Shown in pieces: positions 16,044 to 36,423 of a stretch of DNA of 64,000 nucleotides. Position 1 is the first letter of the stretch, and each line of letters opens with the position of its first letter. A program made the position numbers and the translations under genes. The notes beneath the pieces were generated by a model. The model was not told the DNA's origin, searched no databases, and worked only from the letters and a program-made list of their open reading frames with translations. Origin of the DNA: Chloroflexota bacterium (GTDB taxonomy: Bacteria > Chloroflexota > UBA6077 > FW602-bin22); the NCBI GenBank assembly GCA_016875715.1, contig VGOZ01000001.1:41690-105689 (forward strand). The letters run 5' to 3'.

Positions 16044-16045
16044 GC

Positions 16046-19000: not shown

Positions 19001-19855
19001 GATCCGGCTGAAGGTGACGTGCCACGCCATCGTCGCCAGGATCGCCGCGGAGAGCAGGCCGTACGTCGCGCCGAACAGGGCACGACCGAGCAAGAAGATC
19101 GCGACGATCCCCAGCGATCCGAAGAGCGCGGGAACGAACCTCAGGACCGGCTCACCGGGGCCGAACAGGGCGACTAGCGGCGCGGAGAGGTACCAGGCCA
19201 TCGCCGGCAGCCCCTGCACCGGGCCAGCGCCTGCGACCGGTCGGTAGCTCGGCTCGCTCAGGATTCTCTGGATCTCGATGCCGGCGAACGCCTCGTCGGC
19301 CCACAGACCGAAGGGGATTTCGCCGAGGCGGAACATGCGCGCGCCGAGAGCCACCAGGAACAGGACGCCGACCGCGAGGGCGGCCCATCGGTTGCGCCAC
19401 AGCATCGCGCGCAGACTCGGTCGCGCGTCCAGGAAATAGGCTCCGGCCAGAGCCAGCGGCAGGCTTCCTGCGTAGAATGCCCAGGCGGTCGTGCCGCCGT
19501 TGGCCGATCCGAACAGACCCAGGCCGATGCTGTTGACGGCCAAGCCAGCAACGATGAAGGCTGCTCCGATGGAGAATGCCTTCCCGCTACCCGGACCGGG
19601 AAGTGCCATCGGAGCAATCGGCGGAGTTGTGGGATCGGCGTCGCGCAGTGCCCTGCCGAATACGATCCCGACGATGGCGAACAGCACGACCGCGTCGTAA
19701 AGGAATGTCCGCCCTTCCAGATACCCCTGGGCGACCAGAGCGACGGCGATCGCCACCACACTCCAGAAGAGGCCGACGATCGCCTTCCGATCGATGCGCG
19801 TGATCGGGCGGGCGCGCCGAGTACCGGCCATCGCCGTCTTCACGCTGTTACTCAT
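16046..19855 (-). CDS. 1269-aa GT39/ArnT-like polytopic glycosyltransferase fused to PA14-like + PA14 + six NHL repeats
   Basis: The N-terminal roughly 560 aa are polytopic with the acidic loop motif [13 protein letters not shown]. The rest consists of a degenerate PA14-like module, a clear PA14 domain and a C-terminal NHL propeller (see the sub-features). Confidence 0.7.
   Translation of the reverse strand: [1269 protein letters not shown]
16049..16816 (-). other. six-bladed NHL-repeat beta-propeller domain (C-terminus of the 1269-aa protein)
   Basis: There are six repeats of the NHL pattern, for example [61 protein letters not shown] and [16 protein letters not shown]. Confidence 0.8.
17056..17410 (-). 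other. PA14 carbohydrate-binding-type domain
   Basis: [31 protein letters not shown]...[40 protein letters not shown]...[25 protein letters not shown] is the PA14 signature. Confidence 0.8.
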
Positions 19856-19918
19856 CGCACGGGTCGCTGTCCGCTGTCAAATGTCGTACGGGAACTATCG
19901 GCGTTACACCGCATCACA

Positions 19919-22072
19919 TCAGTCTGCCGGAATGAGGCGGTCGGCGACCAGTCGAACAATGCGGCGCTCGGGGAAGGCCGCGCGCAACTTGGCCAGATCG
20001 ACCGATGGCGTGGCCCTGGCATAGATGACATCGTTATCCAGGAAGGGCGAATTGGCAGAGAAGACCATCCCGTAGTTCCACCACTGCTGGATCGAGCCAG
20101 GATCGACAAGCACGAGGGCGTCGCTGATACCCGAACGCTCGACAGCGCTCACCGGGCCTCGGTGGACATAATTGTAGCCATTCAGCGCTCCGATCCACGG
20201 CGGCAAGTAGAGCGCTGTCGCTCCGGCGACGAGTACGACGAGCATCGCGGGTGCGAGCACGCGACCCGGTGCAGATCCCGCCTGCGCGAGAACGTGCAGG
20301 CCGCGCCCGCTCAGGAGGAGCAGGGGGCCCATCGCCTCGAAGTAGAACCGCGGTCCGTACATCACGCCATCGGCCCACCAGAAGAAGTAGCCGACCATCA
20401 CGCAGGCCGCGCTCGCCAGCAGCAGGCGATCCCAGCGTGACGCCCGCCCGAGCGCGAACGGCACAAGCGCGAACATCAGGGTGAGGGCGCCCGGCCACCC
20501 GAACAGGTGGCGATTCATCTCCGCGACATTCCTGAGTGTGTTGAGTAGTCCGCCGAACGGCGTATGCCCGCCGAGTCCTCTGTCCGGACCGAAGCCCAGG
20601 CGATCGAAACTCCACCACAATTCCATGGTGTTGTGGAGCGGGCCGCCCGCCATCACGGTGTTGTATCCGAACCAGAGGCCCAGAAACGGCGCGGCGCCTG
20701 CCCCCAGAAGGGCAATCTGGCGCATCGACCGGCGCGGATCGTCGGCGAACCGATAGGCCAGATCGACGGCGAACGGTATGCCAAAAACGATCGCGGTCCA
20801 GGGCCGAATCAGAAGCGCAATGCCGAATGCCGCGCCAGCCACGAGCGATGCGCCGCGCGATTGCCCCTCGGAGTGGGCGTATCCGAGAAGGAAGAGCAGC
20901 AGGAAGGCGAGCCCCGCCGTATGCGCCATAAAGCTGCCGTTCAGACCGAGAGCGAACGGGGAAATTAGAAACAGACTGGCCGCGACGACGCCGGTCATCG
21001 GTCGATCGATCGCCGATCCCAGTCGGAAGAGGAGAAGACTCGCCATGCCAGCCAGAATCGGATTAACGACCCATGGAAACCCCGCCAGGACGCCGAGCGC
21101 GAGAATCATCGGGAATCCAGGCGGGTACTTGGCGAACCAGCGCGTCTCATCCATCACGATGAACTCGTGCCAGAAGGCTTCGGGCACCGGGGGGACCGGC
21201 GCCCACAGACGCCCTGCGGCGAACACCTTCGCCTGAAACAGGTACCCCACCGAATCCTGCACGTGGGGGATCCGTTCGAGCAGGAGGTCGGCGACGAGTA
21301 GGGCGCTGACTGTGGTGAGCGCGGCGATTGCTACCGCGGCGAGAAGTGCCCATCGGTCTGCCGGCGGACGGTCGCTCTCGCCGATGCGCGGGTCAGATCG
21401 TCGGGCGGTCTGCCAGAGATGACCGATCAACAGGAAGACCATCCCGACGACCAGCGCGATGAGGTAGGGGGAGAGAAGGTGACGCAGCAGATCCTTTACT
21501 GCGCTCAGCCACGGGCGCGCATACGGGCCGCCGCCGATCGGCCCTTGCCAGTGGCCCTCGTCGAGACGCCACAGGATGACATCCCGGTGTTCGGGCCGCA
21601 CCATGACGAGGACACCGCCGGCGCGCCCATCACTCCCCACAGCGATCGCGCCGGCGCGTCCGCGCGCGAGCGTTGCGTCTATTCGTGCGCCGTTGGGCAG
21701 ATCGGCCAGCGTGGTTCCGATGAACCCGGCGAGTGGAGTCGCCGCCACCCCATCCGGCGTTAGAAACCAGGCTCCGCCCGACGCCGCCCATCCGGATGTG
21801 CCATGGCGCGCGAAGTCGTGCTCGAAGAGGGGCGCGCCGCCCCCATCCTGGACGCGGATGTGACGCCAACCCTGCGTCGCATCGACGGTCTGGATCCCAC
21901 GTGCCAGGGCAAGGTACGGCTCCGGAAGCGTGCTATCCGCCAGGCGCGCTGCCGGTAACGTACCGTCCAGGTAGAGGCCGAGCCGCGGTTCCATGCGCGG
22001 CGGCCGCGCCACGGCGAACGCGGCGCCTTCGACGTGTGCCACCACGAATTCGCCTTCGAGCGCGATTGCCAC
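19919..22072 (-). CDS. GT39/ArnT-like polytopic membrane protein with roughly 180-aa N-terminal globular domain
   Basis: 717-aa ORF. The C-terminal roughly 530 aa are polytopic, with loop motif IPHVQDSVGYLFQAKVFAAGRLW. The N-terminal domain is soluble-looking. The start is uncertain (a GTG, with a TM-like in-frame stretch upstream). Confidence 0.6.
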   Translation of the reverse strand: MAIALEGEFVVAHVEGAAFAVARPPRMEPRLGLYLDGTLPAARLADSTLPEPYLALARGIQTVDATQGWRHIRVQDGGGAPLFEHDFARHGTSGWAASGGAWFLTPDGVAATPLAGFIGTTLADLPNGARIDATLARGRAGAIAVGSDGRAGGVLVMVRPEHRDVILWRLDEGHWQGPIGGGPYARPWLSAVKDLLRHLLSPYLIALVVGMVFLLIGHLWQTARRSDPRIGESDRPPADRWALLAAVAIAALTTVSALLVADLLLERIPHVQDSVGYLFQAKVFAAGRLWAPVPPVPEAFWHEFIVMDETRWFAKYPPGFPMILALGVLAGFPWVVNPILAGMASLLLFRLGSAIDRPMTGVVAASLFLISPFALGLNGSFMAHTAGLAFLLLFLLGYAHSEGQSRGASLVAGAAFGIALLIRPWTAIVFGIPFAVDLAYRFADDPRRSMRQIALLGAGAAPFLGLWFGYNTVMAGGPLHNTMELWWSFDRLGFGPDRGLGGHTPFGGLLNTLRNVAEMNRHLFGWPGALTLMFALVPFALGRASRWDRLLLASAACVMVGYFFWWADGVMYGPRFYFEAMGPLLLLSGRGLHVLAQAGSAPGRVLAPAMLVVLVAGATALYLPPWIGALNGYNYVHRGPVSAVERSGISDALVLVDPGSIQQWWNYGMVFSANSPFLDNDVIYARATPSVDLAKLRAAFPERRIVRLVADRLIPAD

Positions 22073-22152: not shown

Positions 22153-25100
22153 CTAGCGGACCGGGGCGAACCGCAGCACCCGGTTGTTCTGGCTGTCGGC
22201 GACAAGCACCTCCCCGTTAGGTGTCACAGCCAGGCCTGTCGGAAGTGCCATCGACGCCAGATCCCGACCGGGCTTGCCGAAAACAGCAGTCACCTGACCC
22301 GCGGGCGAGAATTTGATCACGCGCTGCCCCTCTGGATCGGTGACGTACACCGATCCATCGGCATCGAGAGCGACTCCAGGCTTGTTCACAACCGACTCAG
22401 ATTCCCAGCCAAGAACGAGCCACTGCGCGGCGTACGCGCCACGAGGATCCAGTTTCTGGACGCGCCGGTTCCACGTGTCCGCCACAACGATGCTCCCGGT
22501 TCGATCGACGGCGATGCCGACGGGTTCGGCGAGCAGACCCTCGCCCGCGCCGCGACCGCCATAAGCGCCCAGGAACTGACCGGTTGGCGAGAACCGCTGG
22601 ATTCGGTGATTACCCGTGTCTGTGACCAGCACCTGACCCTGGGGATCGACCGCAATTCCTCGCGGGCCGAAGAAGTCCCCCGGCGCTTCGTTGAGGGTCG
22701 GCACAAGGCGCGAGTTGCCCCATTTCGCCTTGTAGGCGCCGTCGGACGTGAAGACCTGCACCCGGTGGTTCCAGGTATCGGCAACGTAGATGTCGCCATT
22801 CAGGCCTGCCGCAATACCCCAGGGTTCCTTGAGCTGGCCATCCTGATTTCCCTCGCCGCCGAACGACATCAGGAATCGACCATCTTGGGCGTACTTCACG
22901 ATGCGATGGTTGAAGGTGTCCGCGACGAAGATCGAGCCATCGCGGCCAAGCGCGATGGCCTTGGGATCGGCCATCTGGTTATCGCCCGACCCGCGCGTTC
23001 CGCCCAATGCCGCGGTCGCGGACACCTGACGCGTCGCCCTCTCATAGGCCGTCTCGTCGATCAACTGCTGCGAGGCGAGCGGCGCGGCCCATGCGCCCGA
23101 GGCGAGGTCGCGCCGCACGAACATCACGAAATCGGTCGAGCCGAGCGGGTTCAGCGTCTCGCGGAACATGAAGTAGCGCCAGATCCGTGCCCGCGTTCGC
23201 GGATCCTGGAAAAAGCTCTGAATCGATCCAAGGTTGATGCTGCGATAGTCCTCCGGGAACCACCAGCGCAAGCGGTAGCGCTGGCTCGCGTAACGTGCCC
23301 CCAATTGCCGGCGCACCGCCTCGTCCCGGCTACCCTCGGTGCCGATGATCATGATCGGAGCATCCATCGCTGTGCCGGGGACCGTTCCCGCGCCGATGAA
23401 CACCCGCCCGGGGTAATCGCGCAGGTACCACTCGAACGGCCATGAGACCCCGCTGTCGTAGACGATCTTGACCTTCTCTCGCCCCTGGCCTGTGCGGAAG
23501 GCGACCCGGTCGACCTCGTCGAGCACCTGTCGCACGTCCGGCGACGTCTGGGTGTAGACCAGCATCTCGACCGGGACATCGCCGTTGTAGAAGTTCACCT
23601 GCCAGGCTGTCCGTACCGAGAGCGGCACCAACACGAGCAGAGTGCTCAGAGCCGCCGCTCTGAGCGCCAGCCCCACTCCGAGTCGCGATCCCAGGGTCAC
23701 GCTCACGGTCAGGAGTACGCAGCCTGTCGCGGTGATCGCCAGCCCCTGGAAAAGCCGCGTCACGACTCCAGGCGGCGCCTGTCCGGCGAGGATCGCCGAA
23801 AGGGCGGAGAGCGGCGATGGGTCGCTCGATAGATTGGCGACCCCGCTGATCAGTGCTGCCCCCGTGAGGAAGAGCGACAGGACATAGGTCCCGAGTCGCT
23901 GCCAGGCCGGCTCGCGCGCGGTGATTTCCTGGATCAGCCGGGCGATCGCGACAGCGGCCAGGAAGGCGAGCGGGATGGCCATGTGGATGACCATCCAGGG
24001 CATCTTCTCCGAGGCCCAGCCGTAGAGGAGCAGCGCGCCGAAGGCCCAGTAGACCAGCACTAGGTGAAAGCGACGGACGGGGGTCGGGGCCCCGACTCGA
24101 TGCTTGACCAGAATGTACGCCGCGCCCGCTAGCCCGAACAGGACCGCCACAAACTCATAGAGCGGCAACAGGATCAGGTAGTAGAACCAGGGTTGGTTGC
24201 CACGCGCGACGCCCTGCTGATCAATCCAGTACTTCAGCCCGCCGATCGCACCGCTGAAGAAGCCGCCCGGGTTAGAGAAGAACGTCGTATAGAGGGCGAC
24301 GAAGATTCCCCAGAAGATCACCGCGGCCATGACCCAGATCTGGGCATTCCATCGGGTGCCCACCAGAGCGCCCAGGAGCGCCAGCAGGACGAAGATCGCC
24401 GACAGGTAGGTATTTGCGCGCGCGGGATCGACCGCGGTATGGAGGAAGATGTACTCGAAGCCCCCGGCCGCCAGAGGCAGGCTCAGCGTTCCAATCAGCA
24501 CCGAGACCTGAGCGACTGGGCTCAGGGCGGGAACCGTGCCGCGCCGCGTAACGGATCGAACGATCAGCTGCCAGATGGCCGGCAGATCCTTCCATGAGAG
24601 CGCGATGAGCAAGAAGGCCAGGTAGAACAGTTGGAGATACGTGTCCTCCTTGGTGCAGAAGGCCAGAGACAGAGACGCCACCACCAACCAGAGGTCCGCG
24701 CGACGTTGGTGGGCGATATACCGGTAGATTCCCACCAGGAACAACAACTGGAAAACCGCCAGATAGATGTCGTGCCGCTGAAATCGCGAGTAGTAGATGA
24801 TCGAAGGGCCGAACGCGAGGAACGCCGCCGCGATGAACGCGGCCAGGCGGCCGATAAACTCGCGCGTCATCCAGGCGAGGCCCACCAGCGCGATGCCGAA
24901 AAGGCTGGTCCCCAGCCGCGCCACCGCATCGGTCGCGCCGAAGAGGAAATAGAGCAGCGCCCCGATCTCGAACAGGAACGGGCCGTGCATCATCGGGTCG
25001 TGGATGTATCCACGACCGTTGAAGAGGTAATACGAATAGAGCGCGTGGAGTGATTCGTCGTGGTGGAGCATCCGAGGGCCCAGATCCCAGAGCCGCAGAA

Positions 25101-25245
25101 TGGCCGCGGCGACGATCAGCAGTCCGTACCCGAACTTCTCACCGCTGAGCGGGATGATGCCGAAGAGCGGCCGCTCCAGGATGTGCGCCAGCGGATCCGT
25201 ACGCTCCGTCTGTTGCCCATCTGACGTTCCCGTGACGACCGCCAT
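22153..25245 (-). CDS. TIGR03663-type (GT-C-like, PMT-related) membrane protein fused to a C-terminal six-bladed NHL propeller
   Basis: The N-terminus LRLWDLGPRMLHHDESLHALYSYYLFNGRGYIHDPMMHGPFLF carries the DE dipeptide and HGP tripeptide described as invariant for TIGR03663. The body is polytopic. The C-terminal 273 aa are NHL repeats. A strong SD (GGGAGAGGTAGGGG) lies before the ATG at 25245. Confidence 0.7.
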   Translation of the reverse strand: MAVVTGTSDGQQTERTDPLAHILERPLFGIIPLSGEKFGYGLLIVAAAILRLWDLGPRMLHHDESLHALYSYYLFNGRGYIHDPMMHGPFLFEIGALLYFLFGATDAVARLGTSLFGIALVGLAWMTREFIGRLAAFIAAAFLAFGPSIIYYSRFQRHDIYLAVFQLLFLVGIYRYIAHQRRADLWLVVASLSLAFCTKEDTYLQLFYLAFLLIALSWKDLPAIWQLIVRSVTRRGTVPALSPVAQVSVLIGTLSLPLAAGGFEYIFLHTAVDPARANTYLSAIFVLLALLGALVGTRWNAQIWVMAAVIFWGIFVALYTTFFSNPGGFFSGAIGGLKYWIDQQGVARGNQPWFYYLILLPLYEFVAVLFGLAGAAYILVKHRVGAPTPVRRFHLVLVYWAFGALLLYGWASEKMPWMVIHMAIPLAFLAAVAIARLIQEITAREPAWQRLGTYVLSLFLTGAALISGVANLSSDPSPLSALSAILAGQAPPGVVTRLFQGLAITATGCVLLTVSVTLGSRLGVGLALRAAALSTLLVLVPLSVRTAWQVNFYNGDVPVEMLVYTQTSPDVRQVLDEVDRVAFRTGQGREKVKIVYDSGVSWPFEWYLRDYPGRVFIGAGTVPGTAMDAPIMIIGTEGSRDEAVRRQLGARYASQRYRLRWWFPEDYRSINLGSIQSFFQDPRTRARIWRYFMFRETLNPLGSTDFVMFVRRDLASGAWAAPLASQQLIDETAYERATRQVSATAALGGTRGSGDNQMADPKAIALGRDGSIFVADTFNHRIVKYAQDGRFLMSFGGEGNQDGQLKEPWGIAAGLNGDIYVADTWNHRVQVFTSDGAYKAKWGNSRLVPTLNEAPGDFFGPRGIAVDPQGQVLVTDTGNHRIQRFSPTGQFLGAYGGRGAGEGLLAEPVGIAVDRTGSIVVADTWNRRVQKLDPRGAYAAQWLVLGWESESVVNKPGVALDADGSVYVTDPEGQRVIKFSPAGQVTAVFGKPGRDLASMALPTGLAVTPNGEVLVADSQNNRVLRFAPVR
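22156..22974 (-). other. six-bladed NHL-repeat beta-propeller domain (C-terminus of the 1030-aa protein)
   Basis: Repeats include GSIFVADTFNHRIVKYAQDGRF, GDIYVADTWNHRVQVFTSDGAY, GQVLVTDTGNHRIQRFSPTGQF, GSIVVADTWNRRVQKLDPRGAY, GSVYVTDPEGQRVIKFSPAGQV and GEVLVADSQNNRVLRFAP. Confidence 0.85.
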
Positions 25246-25322
25246 CCCCTACCTCTCCCGTTGTTGCATCGGATTATGCGGCGCCGGAATGTCCAGAGCC
25301 GTACAGAGCTTGCGAGACTGTT

Positions 25323-27191
25323 TCACTGCGCGCGAACCCAGAGTTTCACGTCGGTCATGGCCGGTGCGACGGGCGTTTCCCGATAGCGTAACCACCGCCA
25401 GACCTGCTTTGCATTCTCGAACCGGAAGTTGCCCGTCAGCGAAAGCTGGTACTGCTGACCCGCATAACGCTGGTGTGGCTGCTGTTCCGTCGCCGGGAGC
25501 AGTCTGATGGCGGGCATCGCCGTCGGGACATCGATGCGGCTGGGATTCAGTGGCTTCAGATACCAGTCGACGACATCGCTCACATCGGGCCGGACGATGA
25601 AGCTCCGATCCTTCCGATTGATCGTGAGAACCTGGATCACCTGATGGGCATCGGCTGCGAGTACCCGAACATCTACCGACGTCTGTTGCGCGCGGGGTAG
25701 CTCCGCCAGATTCCCGACGACGCGGAAGGTGAGATTGGACGTGACGTGCACCTCGTTAGCGATGAGAACGACTGCAATGCCGATGAGAAGACTGGTCCAG
25801 GCGGCGCTCGTCGCAATCTGCCGGAAATAGAGGACTGCCAGCAGAACGAGGACGATGGGGAACGCGATCAGCGCACGTTCGGCAGACACGCGGAGTTCCT
25901 CGTCGGTCGTTCCCAGAAACCCCACGGTGCGGAACGCGGCGCCGACGTAGCGGATGGCCACCGGATCTTGCGACGTCACGTGGCCGATCGCAAGCGTGAA
26001 GAGGAAGTACGCCCAGCTTACGATCGCGACCCCGGCCAGCACCATTGCCCGGGAGTGGCGTGCCGCCTCCGCGATCAGGGCCGCAGCCGCGCGAGCGCCG
26101 AGAACCGTCAAGGGAACCACCGCCATCGCGGCGTGGTCAGGAGTGCCTCTCAGGATCGTGGCGACGATCGCGATGCCTGCCCAAACGAGAAGCATCACCG
26201 TGAGTTCATCAGCGCGGCTGGCGGTTGGGACGGCCCGCCCGCGGGCCATCATCGCCACGAACGCGAGCGCCGCCATCGCCGACATGAGCGCATAGCCCGC
26301 CAGGAGGAGTACCCCTAAACGCGGTGCATCCGCTGCCGGCGCGGTGGTGAGCGCAGTGGCCCAGTGGCCGAGCGGTTCGAAGACCCCACGGCCTAGCCCC
26401 GAGATGTCGGTGAAACCCCCGGTCGCCAGACCGAGCAGCGCACTCAGGCCCAGCAGAAGCGTTGGCGCGGGCACGGGTGACGCGGCGGGCCGTCCCTTCT
26501 CCCTGGCCGACGCCGAACGAGCGGAGATTGCCCAGACAATGGCGACCGCGGCCAGAGCGTGGAACACCCCGAAGCCACTCACCAACCCGACGGCGATCGC
26601 GAGCATAAGTAAGGTCCAGGACGTGCGCGGTTCGCGCGCCCGTGCCATCAATCCCGCAACGAGGAGCCCGGCGAGCGCCGCGATCCCGACGCCGCCCGCC
26701 TGCCGTGCCTGATCGACCAGGAGTGGCGCTACGGCCAGACCGAGCGCGGCCACCATAGCCGCCGTTCTGCCGATCATCGGCCGCATCGGAAGAACCGCGA
26801 GCGGAATCAGCGCGCCAAGGACGGCGGGGATGATGCGGACCACTGCGTCCGATCGCCCGCCAAGCTCCACCGCCAGACGAATCCCGAATTCCTGGAGAGA
26901 ACCGACTGTCGCGGGCATCACATCCATCGCGCTCAGTGCGATGCGAGCCTCCACAGGAGAGAGCGGTATCGCCGCGAGATCGAATAAGCGGAGCCCGAGC
27001 GACGCGATCAGGGCGAACGCGTACAGCAAGATCTCCAGCGTCAGGTCTTGCAGTGGAATCCGTCCGGTCTTGCTCGCGTTCGCGCCGATCTCGCCACCAG
27101 AGAGGTCGGGTAAGGACGTGATGTCCGCCGGAGTGGCGCCCCTGCGCGTGCGGGTTCCGCTGCGAACACGACGCTGTGGTGCACTGCTCAT
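25323..27191 (-). CDS. TIGR03663-like polytopic membrane protein lacking the DE/HGP motifs (possible non-catalytic paralog)
   Basis: The ATG at 27191 overlaps the upstream stop (ATGA). The N-terminus LRLFDLAAIPLSPVEARIALSAMDV aligns with LRLWDLGPRMLHHDESLHALYSYYL of the downstream gene. The C-terminus RYAGQQYQLSLTGNFRF...WRWLRYRETP aligns with RYASQRYRLRWWFPEDY...WRYFMFRETL. The longer 27461 start lies inside the upstream gene. Confidence 0.6.
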   Translation of the reverse strand: MSSAPQRRVRSGTRTRRGATPADITSLPDLSGGEIGANASKTGRIPLQDLTLEILLYAFALIASLGLRLFDLAAIPLSPVEARIALSAMDVMPATVGSLQEFGIRLAVELGGRSDAVVRIIPAVLGALIPLAVLPMRPMIGRTAAMVAALGLAVAPLLVDQARQAGGVGIAALAGLLVAGLMARAREPRTSWTLLMLAIAVGLVSGFGVFHALAAVAIVWAISARSASAREKGRPAASPVPAPTLLLGLSALLGLATGGFTDISGLGRGVFEPLGHWATALTTAPAADAPRLGVLLLAGYALMSAMAALAFVAMMARGRAVPTASRADELTVMLLVWAGIAIVATILRGTPDHAAMAVVPLTVLGARAAAALIAEAARHSRAMVLAGVAIVSWAYFLFTLAIGHVTSQDPVAIRYVGAAFRTVGFLGTTDEELRVSAERALIAFPIVLVLLAVLYFRQIATSAAWTSLLIGIAVVLIANEVHVTSNLTFRVVGNLAELPRAQQTSVDVRVLAADAHQVIQVLTINRKDRSFIVRPDVSDVVDWYLKPLNPSRIDVPTAMPAIRLLPATEQQPHQRYAGQQYQLSLTGNFRFENAKQVWRWLRYRETPVAPAMTDVKLWVRAQ

Positions 27192-29593
27192 GGTGCGCGT
27201 GTTCCGCGGAGCTTGTAGATCGTGACGTCGCCGGATCGGAACACCGGATCCATAAAGCGGGCGAACCGGTTGAGGTCCGCTCCCTGAGATGCATACACAT
27301 CCCGTTCGGTTCTGCCCACGAACACGTACTGGGCACCGTACTTCGCGAGAATCGCCAGGACCTCCTGATCGTTCGGCGAACGGTAGATCGCGTCGATATC
27401 CGGCTTCCGAGGTCCGGCGTAGGCGAAGGTGCCTCGCCACTGCTGCTCGTGGAACTCCCAACCGAGCAGAGTCGGCAGGCCGGTCATGCTTGCGACCCGG
27501 CCGAACTCCTGCCGGTATGAGCCGCCGCTCGCCTCCACGATGACGGGCTGCCCGCTGACGTTCGCGGAGAGCCAGGCGATCGCTTTCCCCTCATCCGGTC
27601 GGAACCTGTTCCAGAATGCGATTCCGTCGAGGTTGGGCGAGCGAGAGAAGTCATCGGTCTTGTCGAGCACGGCGCCTACCGGATAGAGGAGCGTGAGGGC
27701 GAACAGAGCGGCAACAAGCCCTGTTCCGGCGGCCACACCGATCCGCGAGGGGGTGGACGGGTGCGCGGCGCGCGCACGCTCGAGGAGGAGCGGTATTGCG
27801 AAACCGACGACGATCGCGAGGAACGCCCACGCCTGGTAGTACAGCTTGAACACAGTGTTCATCCGATTGTTGAACAGGTCCCGAATGAAGACGACCTCAC
27901 TGCCGAAGAGCAGGAGGAACGCGGTGAACGCGAGCAGGAACACAAAAGCTGCTTCGAGCGGGGCGATAGCGCCGACCGAGCTACCGGCGATTGAGGTGGC
28001 TTCGCGCGAGGCACGCGTCGGCGGTGGAGCCTCCACGTCCGTAGGTGGCCGGTTCCGGACGACTCGACTCGCGCACGCGCCCGCGGCCAGGCACAGCGGA
28101 AGGATGAGTGCGACCGCCGGTGCCTCCACCCAGATCGCGATCGCGCTCAGGGCCGCGGTCATGAGCCACACCGCGATCGAACGGGACCAGTCCTGGGAAG
28201 CGGTGCCTCGCCATGTCCGAACGAGATCGACGATGAGGAAGATCGCCGCGACGATGAGTACTGGCCCCCAGAACAGCAGGAAGTGGTGCAGTTGCGACTT
28301 GACGGTGACGACCCCGAGACCTGCCGCCTGCGACCGGAAGGTCAGGTAGAACGGGGCGTAGGTGAGAAGGGAAGCCACAAGCCCGATCGCACCGAACTCG
28401 ATCGCACGAGCGATTGGTGCCTCCGTCCGCGAGGATCGCAGGAGCGCCAGCGCGTATGCGCCGGAGACCACGAAGAGCACGGTGGGCAGATCCCAGGTAT
28501 TCAGGAATCCGAGCGCACCAACACCGATCGCGAGCGGCCCGAGGATCCACGGATCGCGCCAGAGCCGCGCCGCGTCCCGTCCGCGCGCCTCGTTGAGGAC
28601 CGCGAGCGCGAACGAGATGCCGAGCAGAACGAAGGGAAGCGAGAGGACGTGTGGGTGCATGTCTCCCAGAACGAAGCTGAAGAATGGGAACTCGGTGATC
28701 GTATAGTCGGACGCGCGCTCCTGCCCCGCGGGCGCGGGGGTGCCGATGACGCGTGTCGCCCGAAACCACCACCAGTTATCAGATGGGAAGAACCCGGGTG
28801 CCTGGTACCCCACGGGCATGTCCTTGATCGCGAAGAAGGCCCGGACGCCTTCCGGTAGCGCTCGGCGGGCGTTGAGGATCTCCAGCACCGGCTCGAGATT
28901 GCTGACGATCAGCAGGCAACCGCTGGTCAACAGTCCTCCACGCATCGCCTGTCGGTCCGAGGCTCCGCGGGCGAGCGCAAGAGCCGATCCGATCCCGTAG
29001 GCACCGACCGCGGAGAGCGCGAACAGAGTCGGCAGCATCAGATTGAAGGCGATCGACGCCGGTGTGGTGGTGGACATCGCGAGGATCGCCGTGAGCAGAT
29101 AGCCGAAGTAGTAATAGCTAATGGTGGAGCCGCTCAGCCACGGGTCGACCGGCGGGAAGGACTCACTGCGCAGGACGCCGTTGAGAAACAGCAGTTCCAT
29201 CGGTTTCTCGGTGGCCGTGATGTCCGGATCGAACGCCCGCACGATCACCCATAGCAGATATGCGCCGTGGAACAGAATCTCCCCACCGACGATCAGCGCC
29301 CTGCGCTCGCGGAGAAGTGTGCGCGCAACCGGCAGCGGAGAGCCCAGCAGAGTCCACGAGCCGATCGCGACGGCGATCAGGGTGCCAAGGATCGCACCCG
29401 TCCCATTCGTGAGCCACCCGAACGTACCACCCAGCCAGTACGGGTAGCCAAGCGCAATGAGGCCGACCGCCCGGGCGACGGTCCAACCGCGATCCGGCAG
29501 ACGTCGGAACACGCGGAAGGTGATAGGCATCGCCGCCAGAGCGAAGACCTGGAGCGCGAGCCACCACGCCACAACGTGAAGAATCTGGCTCAC
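27188..29593 (-). CDS. Chlor_Arch_YYY domain (TIGR03662 / DUF2298-type) integral membrane protein
   Basis: 801 aa and highly hydrophobic. It has EKPMELLFLNGVLRSESFPPVDPWLSGSTISYYYFGYLL, the YYYxG motif that names the family. The start overlaps the upstream stop (GTGA at 29590-29593). Confidence 0.75.
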   Translation of the reverse strand: MSQILHVVAWWLALQVFALAAMPITFRVFRRLPDRGWTVARAVGLIALGYPYWLGGTFGWLTNGTGAILGTLIAVAIGSWTLLGSPLPVARTLLRERRALIVGGEILFHGAYLLWVIVRAFDPDITATEKPMELLFLNGVLRSESFPPVDPWLSGSTISYYYFGYLLTAILAMSTTTPASIAFNLMLPTLFALSAVGAYGIGSALALARGASDRQAMRGGLLTSGCLLIVSNLEPVLEILNARRALPEGVRAFFAIKDMPVGYQAPGFFPSDNWWWFRATRVIGTPAPAGQERASDYTITEFPFFSFVLGDMHPHVLSLPFVLLGISFALAVLNEARGRDAARLWRDPWILGPLAIGVGALGFLNTWDLPTVLFVVSGAYALALLRSSRTEAPIARAIEFGAIGLVASLLTYAPFYLTFRSQAAGLGVVTVKSQLHHFLLFWGPVLIVAAIFLIVDLVRTWRGTASQDWSRSIAVWLMTAALSAIAIWVEAPAVALILPLCLAAGACASRVVRNRPPTDVEAPPPTRASREATSIAGSSVGAIAPLEAAFVFLLAFTAFLLLFGSEVVFIRDLFNNRMNTVFKLYYQAWAFLAIVVGFAIPLLLERARAAHPSTPSRIGVAAGTGLVAALFALTLLYPVGAVLDKTDDFSRSPNLDGIAFWNRFRPDEGKAIAWLSANVSGQPVIVEASGGSYRQEFGRVASMTGLPTLLGWEFHEQQWRGTFAYAGPRKPDIDAIYRSPNDQEVLAILAKYGAQYVFVGRTERDVYASQGADLNRFARFMDPVFRSGDVTIYKLRGTRAP

Positions 29594-32500
29594 GCACCGC
29601 TGCCGCGAACGCGGTAGATCTTTACACCATCCGCGTCATACACGATGTCGAGATCCGCCCCGGCCATCCGATCGAACTTTGCGAGCCCGCCCGGTGGATA
29701 GTACGCGCGCTCCAGATCGCCCATGTAGATATAGGCAACGTTGTACTTCCGAAGGAGACCTCGGGTCCGCGCGAGGTCCTCGTCGGAGTACAGTGCGCGG
29801 ACGTCGCGGACGCGCTCTTCGATCATGTGCCGAAAGCCCCATCTCTGCTGGGTCTGGTGCCAGTCCCATCCCAGGATCGTGGGCAGACCTGTATAGATCG
29901 AGATGCGCGACCCCCATCGGTAGAGCGGCACATTCGCCTCGGCGATGACCGGAGACCCGTCGACGTTATCCCAGATCCACTCGATGGCACGCAGGTCGCG
30001 CGACAGGCGCAATTCGGTTACCCGCACCGTTGTGGGGTGATCCTCACGATAGATCGCCGTCTCCATATACGCGGTGCCATCGAGCGTCGGCGGAATCGTC
30101 CGATCGAATCGCTCGGCAGCCTTCCCGGGCGTCGAGACAATGGGGTACGCCGCGGCCGCCACTACAAGAACGAGCAAGGTGATCCCCCAGGCGCGAAACG
30201 CACCCGCTCGGACCACGGCGAACAACCGCTCGCGCATCGCCACCGCCGCCACCGCCGCCGCGATCGACCACATGATCCAGACCTGCAGATAGAACTTGAA
30301 TACCGTGTTCATGCGGCCGACATCGCCATCGAGCGCGACGATCTCGACGGCTGTACTCAGAGCCAGGCCTGTCCCGAAGAGAAGCAGCAGGAACGCGCTC
30401 TCGTGGGTGCGCGGGCGCCGCAGCATTCGCCAGACGACCAGCGCTAGGAGCAAGAGGAGGATCGCGGCGAGAACGTAATCGAAGATGATTCCGGCCGCGA
30501 TGACCACGAGGGCAATCGCTGCGACAAGCATCAACCGATTGATGCCCCGGTCGTCCTCGCCCACGAGTCGTGCACGGAGCGCGAATAGATGAGGGAACCG
30601 GTCCCAGCGGCGCAGGATGCTCTCCATTGATCGCCATACCCCGCTCGCGCGGGACGCCTTCGCGACGTCAGCGACCACGAAGCTGACGAGCACGTAGAGG
30701 AAGAGGCCGTGAATCACGAGGTAGTGCACCGGTGATGACTGATCCGGAGTGGGCCGAACGCTCGAATAGAAGCTCACGAAAGTTGAGTGGAAGGGGAGAA
30801 GGAACAGGTAACTCAGGACGACGATCGCGCCAGCGCGGAGGACTGCCGCGCCGAACACGCGAGCGTTGCCCGGCGTGCGCAGGTACCACGGTCCCAACGT
30901 CGCCGCGCAGATGAGCCCCAGGTAGGTCGGGAAGTCCCAGGAGTTGATGGGCCAGAGCGCGCCGATGGCGAGCGCCGCGACGCCGATCGGGACCAGACGC
31001 GCCGGAACGGCCCGCACTCCGAAGTCCAGGGCCTGTCGTACGCTCTCGGCGCGCCAGATCGGGCGGGGTAACGCAAGGGGGAACGCGAAGTGCAGGCTCT
31101 GCCCGGGCATGGGCAGGCGCAGCGCGGGCAATCTGGTGGGCGCAGCCAGAATCGCATTGGCCGCCACTGCGATCGCCAGTACTGTGAAGGGAAGCGCGAT
31201 CGCGTGGGCGTGCAGGTCCGCATAGAGGAACGTGAAGTAGGGGAATTCGTTGATGGTGTTAGGAATGACACGGGTGCTTGGCCAGTACCAGTCCACGGGC
31301 ACGTCGTACGGTCTGCGCAGGACAATCCAGTTGAAGAGCCCGATCGCGATGAGTACGACGTAGTTGACGCCAGGTACCAGGCTGGCGTAACTCGTGCCGG
31401 CCATGCGGATCAGGCCGTCGAAGAGTTGGATCGCCCCGCCCAGATTACCCAGCGTCGTCGCGAGGGCTGCAGCGAAGACGCCTCCGCCGATGGCGTACTG
31501 CTCCGGGACAACACCCCCACGGCGGCCGAGCGTGTAAGCCACACCGTAGGCGCCCGACGCGGTCATCGCGTAGAGCATGGGTAGCGCGAGGTTATACGCC
31601 GTGGTGGGAATGATCCCCGTGACCTTGATCGTCTGGGCCACGATCAACTGCCCGTAGTAGTAGTAGTTCAGGATTCCGCCAGCGAACCACGGGTCGTACG
31701 GTGGGTAGGTGGCAGACTTCACCGCCGCCATCAAGTAGGCGACGTCCATCGGCTTCTCGCCGCCGTGCGCCAAGTGCCAGAGATCGGGGTTCAGAGCCCG
31801 AATCCAGACGAAAAAGAGGAAAGCAAACCAGAACAGCGCCTCGCCGATTCCCAGCGCCAGGCGTCGTTGGGAGGCGACCTCGAGCATCCGCGCTCGAACG
31901 CCACGGAAGAGTGCGGCAGCGAGGAGCGCGGTCAGGATCAGACCGAGGAGTGCCGTGGCGCGGACCGCCGGGACACCCGTGAGCACGACGCACATCCAGG
32001 CGATCCAAGTCATCAGAAGCAGCGCGATGGGCCGAGCGAAAAGCAGACCTGCGTCGGCCATATTCGGGAGCGCCGCTGTCGCGATCGGCGCGCCCACCAT
32101 CGCCAGCACGACTAGGAGGATGATCCAGACTGGCAGCGGGAAGGTGTTCGCCAGGTCGGTCCGATCGAACAACTCGCGGAAGGTGCCTCCAGCCCGGTGC
32201 ACGGCCGCGAGTTCCGGAGTCTGCAGGATCGACCGGTACACCGGTGTCCCGGGCACCACATCGCGGCGCGCCTCCGATAGCGCGGGGCGAAGCAGGTCGC
32301 GGATCTGCGCCTCGTTCAGAGGCGTGGTCTTTCTGAAGATCAGGATCTTGGGGTGGTCGTACACGCTGAAAGATTCGTCGGCGCGCCCGAGGTTCAGCGC
32401 GATGGGAGACTTGGTCCTCTGGAGGTCGCGATGGCGTTCCGGCTCGGGCAATCGCGGGTCGCCGAGAGTCTCATCGAAAAGCGTGACGCCGAGCAGCGAC

Positions 32501-34596
32501 GGGTAGGAGGAGAAGACCTCGACAAGCTCGAATCCAAGTCTCTCGGCGAAGAGCAGCTCGTAGTACCTGGAGGTGAGCGGGTAGCGCTGCGGTAGGCGTG
32601 GGATCGTGCCATAGAGTCGGTTCGAGAAGAAGAGGACGTAGTCGGTGCGCGCCAGCGTGGAGGCGATGTGCTGGAGCTTCCGCTCGTCGTCGGCCTCGTA
32701 GAGGTTGAGGGGTACCTGCCGATAGCCGAACCGCCCCATGTCCAGTTGCTGGCGCTGATCGGACAGCGAGCGCACCGCGACCGGGAACCCCTCCTCCCAG
32801 TGCTCGTTTGCCAGTGTCGAGCCCCGCGGCAAGTTATCGTAAATCCAGCGCGATGCCTGAACCGCGGTGTGTTCGCCGGCGTACACGGCCTGGTACGCCA
32901 CGCCGTAGAACGCGGTAATGCCCAGGACGACCGCGATGACCGCCATGGCTCCCTGGCGAGGCCGAGTCCAGGCCCGGCCTGCCTCATCGAATTCCAGTTC
33001 CCGCCGGGGGACCGGCCCGGGCGACGGTCCCCCGACCGCAATCGTCGGGTCGCGCGGCACAACGGCCGCGGGCACGGCCGCGACCTCCTCGATCGCAAGA
33101 TCCTCGAAGAGCGAAAGACCCTTCAGTTCGGCCCACCGCCTCGTCTCCTCGTCCACGATCGTGACGGGCGCGCGCTTCTCCTCCGCCAAGAGTCCGAAGA
33201 GACCGAGGCCTTTGACTTCGGCCCACCGCCTCGTCTCCTCGTCCAGGGTGACCGGGTCTCCCGGGAGCACCTCGCTCCGCGTCGTCCCCGCAGGTACGGC
33301 GATTGGGGCCGCGGGCGTCTCCTCCGCCGCGATCTCTCGCTCGACGTCGTCCCACGCCGTGTCCGCCTCGCCCACGGCTCGCGGCGTGCGCATTGTCGCC
33401 CACCGGTACAGACTCCAGAGAGCGAACGAGGCGGCCACCGCCAGAACCGGGGTGATCGGCAGCATGTAGCGCAGGAACTTGGCGTGGAAGCTCCCTGTGA
33501 TGAGGAAGTACGGAAGGATCAGGGAGAGCAGGAGGAGATCCGCGTTCGTGGGCTGGCGGATGGCTCGCCAGATCAGGAAAGCGAGTCCGGCGAACATCGC
33601 CAACCCGAGTCCCGGTCCGACGCCGAAGAACAGCAGATTCTCGAAGAAGTACCAGTACGCGGGACGATTGGCGTACTGGCGTGTGTACGGCACGTCGGCC
33701 GAGCCGCGCACCATCGCGTTCTGCTCGAAGATATTGGCGAGGAAGGTCTTCGAATCGATGATCGCGTACGGCTGGAAGATGACGAACGCGGCAAGCGCGA
33801 TCAGGGCCATAGCAATCGCGCGACTGGCCACTGGGCCGAGCGAGCGAGTGGCGCGACCGACCCAGGACCAGCCGGGCGCGACCTTGTCGTCGGCTCGGGC
33901 CATGCGGAGCGCCTGCGCCAGCAGGACCGGCGCGAGCACCGGCGACGCACTGATCTTCGTCGCGAGCGCCATTCCCGCGACGAAGGCCGACCCGATCGTA
34001 TGCCTCCGTTCGCCGGAATGCAGTCCGCGCGCGGCGAGGAGCACCGCGCCGGTGACCAGAAACGTCATTGGCGTGTCGGACGCGTAGAAGTGACTCAGTT
34101 GAATGTGTATGACCGAGAAGGCCACGAACGCCGCCGCCAGGAGGCCGACGCGACGGCCGTACAACTCGCGCCCCAGCAGGAATGTCAGAGCAACCGTGCC
34201 CAGATCGAACAGTCCTGAGAGCGCTCGCCCGACGAAACGAAGTCCGAACGTGTCTGCACTCAAGGAAAGCGAATCGGCGAGACGCAGGAGATCGGCGACT
34301 GCCGAGACGACCCAGTGGACGAATCGGAGGACATAGAAGATCAGCGACCCGTAGGCGAAGGAGCGCGGGTTGAGCGAGCTGTCCGGCTCAAGAAGGTGGC
34401 CCACGTCGATGGGGAAAGACAATCGGACGCCGTCGGTGACCATGAAGATGTGGCGCTCGTCGGGATGGAAGAGATGGCCTCCATCCCAGTTGAGATCGGA
34501 GAATCGAAGAATCGCGCCCACAATCAGGATCAACGGGAGCGCGAATGGTGCGAAACGGGTTATGGCCTCGCGACCCGAGCGAGCCCAGCGGGGCAT
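29590..34596 (-). CDS. roughly 1668-aa fusion: GT39/TIGR03663-like N-terminal half + linker with duplicated 30-aa module + Chlor_Arch_YYY domain
   Basis: The likely start is the ATG at 34596 (MPRWARSGREAITRF), preceded by TAGGAGGAA. The N-terminal half has LNWDGGHLFHPDERHIFMV. The C-terminal half has GGEKPMDVAYLMAAVKSATYPPYDPWFAGGILNYYYYGQLI. Its C-terminal tail (LPTILGWDWHQTQQRW...YIYMGDLER) is paralogous to the downstream gene (LPTLLGWEFHEQQWRG...YVFVGRTER). Confidence 0.7.
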   Translation of the reverse strand: MPRWARSGREAITRFAPFALPLILIVGAILRFSDLNWDGGHLFHPDERHIFMVTDGVRLSFPIDVGHLLEPDSSLNPRSFAYGSLIFYVLRFVHWVVSAVADLLRLADSLSLSADTFGLRFVGRALSGLFDLGTVALTFLLGRELYGRRVGLLAAAFVAFSVIHIQLSHFYASDTPMTFLVTGAVLLAARGLHSGERRHTIGSAFVAGMALATKISASPVLAPVLLAQALRMARADDKVAPGWSWVGRATRSLGPVASRAIAMALIALAAFVIFQPYAIIDSKTFLANIFEQNAMVRGSADVPYTRQYANRPAYWYFFENLLFFGVGPGLGLAMFAGLAFLIWRAIRQPTNADLLLLSLILPYFLITGSFHAKFLRYMLPITPVLAVAASFALWSLYRWATMRTPRAVGEADTAWDDVEREIAAEETPAAPIAVPAGTTRSEVLPGDPVTLDEETRRWAEVKGLGLFGLLAEEKRAPVTIVDEETRRWAELKGLSLFEDLAIEEVAAVPAAVVPRDPTIAVGGPSPGPVPRRELEFDEAGRAWTRPRQGAMAVIAVVLGITAFYGVAYQAVYAGEHTAVQASRWIYDNLPRGSTLANEHWEEGFPVAVRSLSDQRQQLDMGRFGYRQVPLNLYEADDERKLQHIASTLARTDYVLFFSNRLYGTIPRLPQRYPLTSRYYELLFAERLGFELVEVFSSYPSLLGVTLFDETLGDPRLPEPERHRDLQRTKSPIALNLGRADESFSVYDHPKILIFRKTTPLNEAQIRDLLRPALSEARRDVVPGTPVYRSILQTPELAAVHRAGGTFRELFDRTDLANTFPLPVWIILLVVLAMVGAPIATAALPNMADAGLLFARPIALLLMTWIAWMCVVLTGVPAVRATALLGLILTALLAAALFRGVRARMLEVASQRRLALGIGEALFWFAFLFFVWIRALNPDLWHLAHGGEKPMDVAYLMAAVKSATYPPYDPWFAGGILNYYYYGQLIVAQTIKVTGIIPTTAYNLALPMLYAMTASGAYGVAYTLGRRGGVVPEQYAIGGGVFAAALATTLGNLGGAIQLFDGLIRMAGTSYASLVPGVNYVVLIAIGLFNWIVLRRPYDVPVDWYWPSTRVIPNTINEFPYFTFLYADLHAHAIALPFTVLAIAVAANAILAAPTRLPALRLPMPGQSLHFAFPLALPRPIWRAESVRQALDFGVRAVPARLVPIGVAALAIGALWPINSWDFPTYLGLICAATLGPWYLRTPGNARVFGAAVLRAGAIVVLSYLFLLPFHSTFVSFYSSVRPTPDQSSPVHYLVIHGLFLYVLVSFVVADVAKASRASGVWRSMESILRRWDRFPHLFALRARLVGEDDRGINRLMLVAAIALVVIAAGIIFDYVLAAILLLLLALVVWRMLRRPRTHESAFLLLLFGTGLALSTAVEIVALDGDVGRMNTVFKFYLQVWIMWSIAAAVAAVAMRERLFAVVRAGAFRAWGITLLVLVVAAAAYPIVSTPGKAAERFDRTIPPTLDGTAYMETAIYREDHPTTVRVTELRLSRDLRAIEWIWDNVDGSPVIAEANVPLYRWGSRISIYTGLPTILGWDWHQTQQRWGFRHMIEERVRDVRALYSDEDLARTRGLLRKYNVAYIYMGDLERAYYPPGGLAKFDRMAGADLDIVYDADGVKIYRVRGSGA
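33127..33245 (-). repeat. exact 29-nt direct repeat 90 nt apart (in-frame duplication of a 30-aa module)
   Basis: ttcggcccaccgcctcgtctcctcgtcca occurs at 33127-33155 and at 33217-33245. It encodes (T/I)(L/V)DEETRRWAE(V/L)KGL(G/S)LF twice, 30 residues apart. Confidence 0.95.
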
Positions 34597-34691
34597 GCGC
34601 GAGCGGTTCCTCCTACAGGCGTCAGCGATGCTAGCACCTCGCCATAACGTCACAGAGTGCGCGCTGTCACGCGCGTGATACACTGGATGAG

Positions 34692-35074: not shown

Positions 35075-35395
35075 GTGGCAGTCGACGGTCTGCGGTTCGA
35101 GCGACAGTATCGTACGTCCCATTCCGAGGGCTACCTGATTCTCGATGGCGAGGATCGGTTCGGTCGGATCGAACTGCACTTCACGGCCAGCGTCGTCTAC
35201 GGCACGTTGATTGCCGAGCGTGACCTGGCAGAAGACGAGATCCTCGACGTGATCGAACAGATCGACGACGAACTCGTGATGACGGCGGATGTCCCACGGG
35301 ATGACTTCATCGTCACGGTCTATCAAGGGCGCGACGCTGGTACGTACAGCGATGACTACTTCGATGACAGCGAGGAAGACGAGAGCGGGTCGTGA
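35075..35395 (+). CDS. small hypothetical protein with strongly acidic C-terminus
   Basis: 106 aa with protein-like composition. The stop overlaps the polyprenyl synthase start (GTGA at 35392-35395). I recognise no family. Confidence 0.45.
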   Translation: MAVDGLRFERQYRTSHSEGYLILDGEDRFGRIELHFTASVVYGTLIAERDLAEDEILDVIEQIDDELVMTADVPRDDFIVTVYQGRDAGTYSDDYFDDSEEDESGS

Positions 35396-36423
35396 CCCTT
35401 TCCGATCCCCTGAGCGCCGCGGCGACGCGGTTTGGTCCGGCGCTCGATCGTGAACTCCGCGAGGCGGTGCCGGACGAGTCGAGGGGAGCCATTTACCGTC
35501 TCGTTCGGTACCATCTCGGATGGGCGACGCAGAATGGCGTTGTGGCGCGCGCCGAGCCGGGAAAGCGCCTGCGCCCCTACCTTCTCCTTCTCGCGTGTGA
35601 GTCAGCGGGCGGCCGCGCGGACGGCGGCTTGCCCGCCGCGGCGGCGGTTGAACTGCTGCACAACTTCTCCCTGATCCACGACGACATCCAGGATCGCTCG
35701 CCCCAGCGGCGCCATCGCGCCACCGTCTGGAGCATCTGGGGCGAGGCTCAGGCGATCAACGCGGGCGACGTTCTTCACGCGATCGCGTCACGATCGTTCC
35801 TTCGCTGTGCGGAGCGCGGCGTATCACTCGGTGCTACCCATCGGGCGCTGGCCCTCTTCCACGAGAGTTGCTACCGCCTCGTGGAGGGGCAGTATCTCGA
35901 TCTGACGTTCGAGTCGCGCGTCGACGTGAGCCCGGCGGAGTATCTCGCGATGGTGGACGGCAAGACAGGCGCGCTCATCGCCGCCTGCGTGGAGATCGGC
36001 GCCGTCCTAGCCGGGCGGGATGGCGCGGCCTGGCGTGCCGTCGGCAGGGCGTTCGGTCGCGCCTTTCAGATCGTCGACGACGTCCTCGGGGTTTGGGGCG
36101 ACCCTGCGGTCCTCGGCAAGTCCGTCGACGACGACATTCGTTCCGCGAAGAAGTCGCTGCCAGTTCTTCTTGCTCGAGAGTCGCTCTCGGCGACCGATCG
36201 CACTTGCCTCGACACGCTCTACGGTGCAGATCGTCGGTCCGATGACGATGTGGAGACGATTCGGAGGATGCTCGACCAGTCCGGCGCGCGAGAACGGGCG
36301 TTGGACCACGCACGCGCTGCGGCGATGGAAGGAGAGGCGGCGCTCGCGGTGATACAGGAGCGTGGGGCGGCGGTCGCGCCGCTGACATCCTTGCTGCGCG
36401 TCCTTGTGGAACGACACCGTTAG
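35392..36423 (+). CDS. trans-polyprenyl diphosphate synthase (GGPP/long-chain type)
   Basis: It has the first Asp-rich motif LIHDDIQDRSPQRRHR and the second, FQIVDDVLGVWGD. Confidence 0.85.
   Translation: MTLSDPLSAAATRFGPALDRELREAVPDESRGAIYRLVRYHLGWATQNGVVARAEPGKRLRPYLLLLACESAGGRADGGLPAAAAVELLHNFSLIHDDIQDRSPQRRHRATVWSIWGEAQAINAGDVLHAIASRSFLRCAERGVSLGATHRALALFHESCYRLVEGQYLDLTFESRVDVSPAEYLAMVDGKTGALIAACVEIGAVLAGRDGAAWRAVGRAFGRAFQIVDDVLGVWGDPAVLGKSVDDDIRSAKKSLPVLLARESLSATDRTCLDTLYGADRRSDDDVETIRRMLDQSGARERALDHARAAAMEGEAALAVIQERGAAVAPLTSLLRVLVERHR

Follow-up and report, generated by a model that had tools for sequence, protein, structure and literature searches.

The 64,000-nucleotide window analyzed here (positions 41,690 to 105,689 of contig VGOZ01000001.1, assembly GCA_016875715.1, from a Chloroflexota bacterium) contains two adjacent genes, named A and B, whose products are predicted to be membrane proteins of the GT-C glycosyltransferase fold. 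Gene A encodes an N-terminal module (N-module) followed by a module of the YYY family (DUF2298, TIGR03662), and gene B encodes a stand-alone YYY protein. Because the structure model of YYY has a GT-C fold, A appears to join two different GT-C modules in tandem, whereas B would be a single GT-C protein. The locus itself is an ordinary member of its kind, since both the family and the architecture are already in databases for hundreds of Chloroflexota genomes. What is new here is the GT-C fold of YYY, the old paralogy of its fused and stand-alone forms, and a conserved gene order in which A and B are followed by two further genes, C and D. With this predicted fold DUF2298, to which no function had been assigned, becomes a candidate for a new family of GT-C glycosyltransferases.

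Gene A and gene B share a YYY module

Gene A (29590..34596, minus strand) encodes 1668 aa; it starts with ATG and has AGGAGG upstream. Gene B (27188..29593, minus strand) encodes 801 aa and starts with GTG, and its N-terminal residues match position 1 of the TIGR03662 model and the initial methionine of its homologues. The stop codon of A and the start codon of B overlap in GTGA (29590..29593, minus strand), and those of B and C overlap in ATGA (27188..27191, minus strand). Both overlaps were read in the sequence; a preliminary description of this stretch had called A and B translationally coupled. The 4-base A/B overlap is also present in two related loci (L001 and L084), and the B/C overlap in the second of them.

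TIGR03662, which has a curated whole-protein cut-off of 300.25 bits, scored 539.2 bits in A (residues 823-1664, model positions 7-727) and 576.2 bits in B (residues 3-795, model positions 1-726). PF10060 (DUF2298) scored 378.9 bits in A and 388.5 bits in B, above its gathering threshold of 27.8. The C-terminal half of A and the whole of B are full-length members of this family, with the YYYxG motif present. In the whole A protein, Pfam placed PMT_2 (residues 123-228) and Glyco_transf_22 (residues 85-396) ahead of DUF2298. BLASTP aligned residues 10-800 of B collinearly with residues 824-1668 of A (28% identity, E=7e-62), and the C-terminal half of A is homologous to B. The preliminary description had stated this collinearity correctly but gave its length as about 900 aa, where we found about 845 aa. 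All the motifs it quoted are present, but one of them, H(Q/E)QQW, was written one residue out of register (HQTQQRW in A, HEQQWRG in B).

A 516-aa open reading frame (ORF) lies antisense to gene A (32668-34218, plus strand). It is probably a by-product of 65% G+C opposite a conserved gene.

The YYY module has a predicted GT-C fold

The fused YYY module (A residues 816-1668; 29593..32151, minus strand), assigned by TIGR03662 and collinear with B, begins near residue 820, immediately after the external domain of the N-module. Its acidic loop carries EKPMD (A residues 947-951; 31744..31758, minus strand), which corresponds to EKPME in B (residues 129-133; 29195..29209, minus strand). In B this motif starts the first juxtamembrane helix of a long external loop, and in the AlphaFold2 (AF2) model that helix (130-142) comes after transmembrane (TM) helix 98-121. 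Neither E947, K948, P949 and M950 of A, in 57 sequences, nor E129, P131 and M132 of B, in 71, show any variation. YYYxG appears as NYYYYGQ at residue 978 of A and as SYYYFGY at residue 160 of B, with Y160, Y161 and G164 of B invariant in the same 71 sequences. Towards the C-terminus follow LPTILGWDWH (A1571) and LPTLLGWEFH (B706), then YIYMGDLER (A1622) and YVFVGRTER (B756).

Among the residues invariant in the 71 YYY proteins are E129, D150, E301, D311, H313, H315, N365, D368, R577, N579 and K583, and their equivalents are also invariant in the fused YYY of A. The latter keeps the family-invariant E947, D968, N1002, N1051, E1117, D1127, H1129, H1131, N1218, D1221, R1428, N1430 and H1580. Since the same positions are retained in the fused module, both YYY copies look functional.

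The AF2 model of B was built from the 71 sequences and has a predicted local distance difference test (pLDDT) score of 91.2 and a predicted TM-score (pTM) of 0.93. Foldseek returned seven matches in the PDB at E<=0.001, all of them GT-C proteins: DPY19 (5.7e-7), AftA (4.7e-6) and AglB (1.4e-5), with AftD and Pmt1 lower in the list. According to this model, YYY/DUF2298 is a GT-C-fold, enzyme-like module, and the earlier view of it as merely a partner or binding domain does not agree with such a fold. A profile-profile comparison between N-module and YYY gave a probability of 2.9%, so that neither half of A is recognizable as a duplicate of the other.

The C-terminal residues 646-801 of B (27191..27658, minus strand), which contain GWEFH and YVFVGRTER, form an extracytoplasmic alpha/beta "dome" in the model. 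These last 155 residues or so match the C-terminal globular domain of AglB (3vu0) with a probability of 1.00 and a target-relative TM-score of 0.53. The soluble extracytoplasmic tail proposed earlier is thus modeled as a folded domain. When the helices of the model were counted by alternation back from this outside domain, B had 16 TM helices and its N-terminus was placed outside. With this predicted topology the Arg/Lys-rich loops of B (residues 29-36, 84-97, 339-347, 514-545 and 610-613) would all lie inside, and the invariant polar residues, including N184, N232, E566 and D572 besides the E129 to K583 set, would all lie outside. An outside N-terminus fits the arrangement in A, where YYY is attached to the end of the N-module's external domain.

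GT-C enzymes combine conserved and variable transmembrane modules, have a carboxylate base in external loop 1 (EL1), and share a luminal dome among oligosaccharyltransferase, Emb and AftD (PMC10154233). The proteins of this kind with known structure (DPY19, 7zli; AftA, 8if8; AglB/STT3, 7e9s and 7oci) resemble A and B in the polytopic fold, the long predicted external loop 1 with its juxtamembrane helices and, putatively, a conserved carboxylate there, and also in the alpha/beta external domain that comes after the last TM helix. However, they have no detectable sequence similarity to A or B, which have no WWDYG, and the TM-scores are modest (0.3-0.5). YYY also appears to have three extra N-terminal helices, which would put its N-terminus outside.

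One of these likenesses could be taken further, with YYY as a diverged oligosaccharyltransferase of the STT3/AglB type that transfers a glycan en bloc from polyprenyl-diphosphate to surface proteins. AglB is among the best fold matches and its globular domain is matched by the dome, a syntenic neighbor has a Pro/Thr-rich external linker, and the TIGR03662 family is shared with Archaea. Nevertheless, we consider this explanation improbable. No STT3 profile of Pfam or NCBIfam matched A or B, neither WWD nor WW[DE]xG was found in them, and there is no DxD after the first TM helices. The matches to DPY19 and AftA are at least as good as the one to AglB, and the core of the dome is common to many GT-C enzymes (PMC10154233). 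The similarity to STT3, AglB and PglB is at the level of the fold only.

A reading built on the preliminary description makes the N-module the sole enzyme, and YYY a non-catalytic scaffold or substrate-binding partner whose tail presents the acceptor. The recurrent fusion and adjacency of the two modules and the folded external tail agree with such a role, and it is a predicted fold that suggests an enzymatic role for DUF2298. We find a scaffold rather unlikely, as it explains poorly a GT-C fold with about 16 TM helices and some 20 invariant polar residues on the predicted outer face, among them the loop Glu, DxHxH and RMNTVFK. Moreover, stand-alone YYY proteins are numerous (3619 protein matches to B, with all of the 120 listed being single-domain), and some proteins have two YYY modules.

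The N-terminal module is a generic GT-C module

The first 425 residues of A (33322..34596, minus strand) form a polytopic GT-C transmembrane domain, as indicated by Pfam, AF2 and Foldseek. When the N-module was scanned alone it scored 38.6 bits with PMT_2, 34.7 bits with GT22 and 25.3 bits with PMT, all exceeding the cut-offs. For PMT (PF02366) the cut-off is 22.7 bits, and this family is not listed for the whole A protein at E<=0.01. An AF2 model of residues 1-820, built from 57 homologues, has a pLDDT of 83.3 and a pTM of 0.81, the transmembrane domain being mostly above 90. All 26 PDB matches found by Foldseek at E<=0.001 are GT-C enzymes, including STT3 (5.7e-9), AglB, ArnT, Pmt4, ALG12/9, Emb and PglB.

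The HPDER motif (A residues 44-48; 34453..34467, minus strand) is in loop 1 after TM1 and holds a candidate catalytic Asp-Glu. H44, P45, D46, E47 and R48 are invariant across 57 fusion proteins, and in the model HPDER stands at the start of helix 45-56, following TM helix 3-32. As the first loop after a TM1 with its N-terminus inside, HPDER would be on the same membrane face as the acidic loop of YYY. Both would be outer, which agrees with the arrangement foreseen in the preliminary description. D46/E47 and E129/E947 are alike in being invariant and in starting loop helices, and helix parity and the positive-inside rule suggest their membrane side.

The transmembrane domain is followed by an insert (A residues 426-545; 32962..33321, minus strand), probably cytoplasmic, with a pLDDT below 50 over residues 428-528. 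It contains two tandem copies of a repeat of about 30 aa, PVT..DEETRRWAE[VL]KGL.LF (A residues 445-505, window 33082-33264). A tandem-repeat scan of the insert at the DNA level found nothing, and the repeat is visible in the protein only. In most of the distant relatives the N-module is about 130 residues shorter, and the low-confidence insert (428-528) is specific to the lineage of A.

The N-module ends with its last TM helix and an extracytoplasmic alpha/beta domain (A residues 546-815; 32152..32961, minus strand), modeled as a helix at 545-573 and then strands and helices of high pLDDT over 577-780. E598, W600, Y633, D636, K640, R660, D740, E741, D747 and H748 are invariant in this external domain. 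Accordingly, the N-terminal polytopic module with HPDER described previously is present, but in the AF2 model it extends to about residue 815, not 480.

MIR and PMT_4TMC domains were not matched in A even at E<=10, and TIGR03663 (Agl23), with a cut-off of 126.25 bits, was not matched in the N-module at E<=0.01. The near-equal scores with PMT_2, GT22 and PMT suggest that the N-module is a generic GT-C type A module and not a specific member of GT39, so the earlier label "GT39-like" was too specific. Its likeness to PMT/GT39, ArnT/GT83 and GT22 proteins lies in the Pfam thresholds that it passes for all three families when scanned alone, in the fold matches to ArnT, Pmt4 and ALG9/12, and in a loop-1 Asp-Glu as in PMTs. 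It differs from them in having neither MIR nor PMT_4TMC and in having its own conserved external domain (577-780).

The fusion is widespread in Chloroflexota

A genome scan with one genome per species found at least 593 loci, and the best 80 were examined with hidden Markov models of our own, built for the N-module and the YYY module. These are almost all from Chloroflexota, including Dehalococcoidia, SAR202, Anaerolineae, Thermoflexia, Caldilineales, Chloroflexia and Thermomicrobiales. An uninterrupted ORF with an N-module followed by YYY (N-Y) is present in 80 of the 80 loci, and complete chromosomes carry several of these. With A as the query, a protein search found 521 proteins at E<=1e-10, and the best 120 all combine PMT_2 with DUF2298 in 1200-2660 aa. 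N-Y is the commonest architecture among these 120 (116 proteins), and 3 have a second YYY module (N-Y-Y). The proposal that the two module types belong together is supported by these counts.

We also considered that an error in sequencing or assembly might have merged two genes into the long ORF of A. This was rejected as extremely improbable, because the uninterrupted ORF recurs in all the loci examined and in the best protein matches. The same two-module ORF is also found in relatives of 88% and 59% identity. The long ORF is genuine, as the preliminary description had assumed.

The fusion is already catalogued, abundant and ordinary in Chloroflexota. Databases at NCBI and JGI label it as "DUF2298 domain-containing", "YYY domain-containing" or "glycosyltransferase family 39 protein", and the idea that it was undescribed has to be abandoned. 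B belongs to the single-domain class of TIGR03662, and the N-module of A is also found in the class with two YYY copies and TPR. A differs from the latter class in having the N-module with one YYY and no TPR. P0056 (2625 aa) and P0081 (2662 aa) are N-Y-Y proteins with TPR domains, and the "additional N-terminal region" of the two-copy class is the N-module of A. The TIGR03662 family note is not known to list an N-module with a single YYY.

The N-Y-Y ORFs, of about 2400 aa, occur in 6 of the 80 loci. Three GT-C modules are thereby predicted in one chain of 2300-2660 aa (L009, L021, L024, L037, L038 and L058 among the loci; P0037, P0056 and P0081 among the proteins), and some of these giants carry C-terminal TPR repeats. 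A stand-alone YYY gene comes after N-Y-Y in 4 of the 5 loci that have downstream sequence. The N-module alone matched 1333 representatives at E<=1e-30, some of them unfused, and a clear unfused N-module gene is present in L009. Chains of two or three GT-C modules (N-Y, N-Y-Y) were without description in the literature searched, and no tandem or fused GT-C pair was described there.

Stand-alone and fused YYY modules are old paralogues

Clustering of 106 YYY modules separated 18 stand-alone from 88 fused modules cleanly. Since the two kinds form separate clusters, B is an old paralogue of the fused YYY module, and both copies appear to be under selection. An origin of B by recent tandem duplication was rejected on the same separation. 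A stand-alone YYY gene directly follows the fusion in 15 of the 80 loci, and in L022 it lies 3 kb downstream.

Gene C (25323..27191, minus strand, 622 aa) encodes a divergent polytopic protein similar to Agl23 and PMT_2. It scored 25.6 bits with PMT_2, for which the cut-off is 26.1, and 28.8 bits with TIGR03663, well under the cut-off. BLASTP related C to D at 1.8e-6. In the first external loop of C, Val-Glu (SPVEAR) takes the place of the Asp-Glu seen in A, D, F, H and I, and C may be a catalytically altered or non-catalytic partner. Gene D (22153..25245, minus strand, 1030 aa) begins 77 nt after C and encodes a GT-C-like membrane domain of the Agl23 family followed by a C-terminal NHL beta-propeller. 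It scored 298.6 bits with TIGR03663, above the cut-off, and contains NHL repeats, a DE motif (residue 63) and an HGP motif (residue 87).

Wherever a stand-alone YYY directly follows the fusion and the contig continues, the next one or two genes best match C or D of the window, so that an Agl23-like GT-C gene comes after the stand-alone YYY in these loci as well. In the full order of the relatives, A and B are followed by a gene encoding about 600 aa and then by a D-like gene encoding about 1050 aa, in which NHL repeats accompany a membrane domain of the Agl23 family. This order is kept in L001, L004, L005, L007, L009, L037, L038, L046, L053, L058, L073, L080 and L084. As C and D are Agl23-like and conserved after B, the operon holds the pairing of a PMT_2/Agl23-type protein with YYY twice, once fused (A) and once as overlapping separate genes (B-C). 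The TIGR03663 family co-occurs with TIGR03662, and this association was reproduced in the loci examined.

A putative envelope glycosylation system

We propose that A and B are extracytoplasmic glycosyltransferases dependent on polyprenyl-phosphate sugars that carry out consecutive reactions on a glycan or glycoprotein of the envelope. We regard this as fairly probable. The two would be the GT-C proteins of a cell-envelope glycosylation locus of Chloroflexota. The first module of A would be a PMT/ArnT/STT3-like enzyme with the candidate catalytic Asp-Glu of HPDER in its first external loop. The second, YYY, would have about 16 TM helices and its two ends outside. Its long external loop would hold EKPM[D/E], whose Glu is a candidate catalytic residue, and its outer face would carry invariant Asp, His, Asn and Arg arranged in a ring (DxHxH, NxWD, RMNTVFK) as well as an AglB-like dome. 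B would be made from the same transcript as A, C and D, given the GTGA and ATGA overlaps. At the outer face of the membrane, each module would take a sugar from a polyprenyl-phosphate-linked donor and pass it to an acceptor that they share, which would be a polysaccharide of the wall or a protein of the surface. The fusion in A and the tight co-translation of B, C and D may keep successive steps together, as in EmbA-EmbB and Pmt1-Pmt2.

In these two systems, too, paired GT-C proteins act in one pathway or complex, and PgfM1 and PgfM2 of Streptococcus mutans are two GT-C proteins encoded together that serve one pathway or complex (PMC12041528). All of these are, however, separate chains of the same family, while A would join two unrelated GT-C modules covalently.

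Several observations weigh against the proposed role. The Foldseek TM-scores of both models are modest (0.3-0.59) with large root-mean-square deviations, which points to a fold class and not to a specific family. Searches with the sequences of A and B and with the profile of the 71 YYY proteins gave chance matches only among solved structures, and the link to GT-C therefore comes from fold comparison alone. E129/E947 is a candidate catalytic base by its loop position only. Among the 30 other ORFs scanned in the window there is no GT2-type polyprenyl-phosphate-sugar synthase. In the Dehalococcoidia loci no stand-alone YYY was found within the 10-kb flanks, so that a physical complex between A and B cannot be obligatory. 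The literature searched had incidental mentions only of DUF2298, PF10060, TIGR03662 and the YYY domain, with no characterized member. Finally, Agl23 of Haloarcula hispanica, the one characterized relative of the partner family, was reported as a putative hexose-P-dolichol flippase and not as a transferase; after purification it translocated M5GN2-PP-Dol in liposomes, and it rescued a yeast rft1 deletion (PMC11182771). The main text of the Agl24 paper has nothing on Agl23.

This activity suggests another division of labor, in which the N-module of A, C and D translocate polyprenyl-phosphate sugars and the YYY modules transfer them. A would then be a fused translocator and transferase, and B with C and D the unfused version. 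D clearly belongs to the Agl23 family, with an added NHL propeller, C is a divergent relative, and fusion as well as conserved adjacency pairs YYY with a PMT_2/Agl23-like module. However, the N-module of A is not a member of TIGR03663, its invariant loop-1 Asp-Glu and conserved external domain are features of transferases, and its best fold matches are all transferases. In addition, the flippase assignment of Agl23 comes from one protein and a heterologous substrate. This couple of flippase and transferase seems unlikely to us. A broader form of it, that YYY is an unrecognized GT-C family in obligate pair with a PMT_2/Agl23-type module which flips the sugar that YYY transfers, seems equally doubtful. 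It would apply to Chloroflexota and, by the family note, to Archaea, with A as the fused couple and B with C and D as the unfused one in the same operon.

The conserved A-B-C-D module is a concrete and testable starting point for work on the poorly known cell-envelope glycobiology of Chloroflexota, for which a literature search returned nothing specific to the A-D genes. The repeated pairing with Agl23-type proteins bears on the route by which polyprenyl-phosphate sugars get to the outer side of the membrane.

Genes surrounding A-D

A and B sit within a run of minus-strand genes of about 25 kb. Past D come six more genes (9443..22072, minus strand). Four are PMT_2/GT-C-like, and PA14 and NHL domains are present in some. 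With A-D included, the cluster has ten genes in about 25 kb, and GT-C proteins predominate in it. One of the four GT-C-like genes matches the LA_3751/LA_3752 family. For a polytopic protein of 717 aa (19919-22072, minus strand) the sole match, a weak one, is to the LA_3751/LA_3752 putative glycosyltransferases; its gene is kept after D in L001, L004, L005 and L007. Gene H (12230..15109) has a 4-base overlap with I, and a gene for 328 aa (15057-16043, minus strand) has no family match. A promoter scan of 21500-35500 found none, and a terminator scan of the same region found fewer terminator-like sites than in shuffled sequence, which is uninformative on the limits of the operon. Rfam gave no match in or near genes A and B.

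Upstream and divergent from A, a cyclophilin-like gene is found beside a gene for polyprenyl diphosphate synthase (35392..36423, plus strand; PF00348, 4.6e-62), the latter being syntenic in L001 and L084. This synthase is a possible supplier of the lipid carrier and the only hint from gene context at a lipid-phosphate-linked sugar donor. The next protein (36531-37805, plus strand) has a cytoplasmic N-terminal region, one TM helix, a long Pro/Thr/Ala-rich linker, a CarboxypepD_reg Ig-like domain and LysM, and its gene is syntenic beside the cluster in L001 and L084. Its Pro/Thr-rich linker looks like a substrate of PMT-type O-glycosylation. Synteny of the cyclophilin-like, polyprenyl synthase and LysM genes was found in the relatives of 88% and 59% identity.

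At the far end of the cluster, a sulfotransferase-family gene and a gene for an LPG_synthase_TM-family membrane protein (7559-9459, plus strand) converge on it and possibly have further envelope-modifying functions. The window also contains a full-length bacterial large-type signal recognition particle RNA (51857-52120, minus strand; Rfam RF01854, 165.6 bits).

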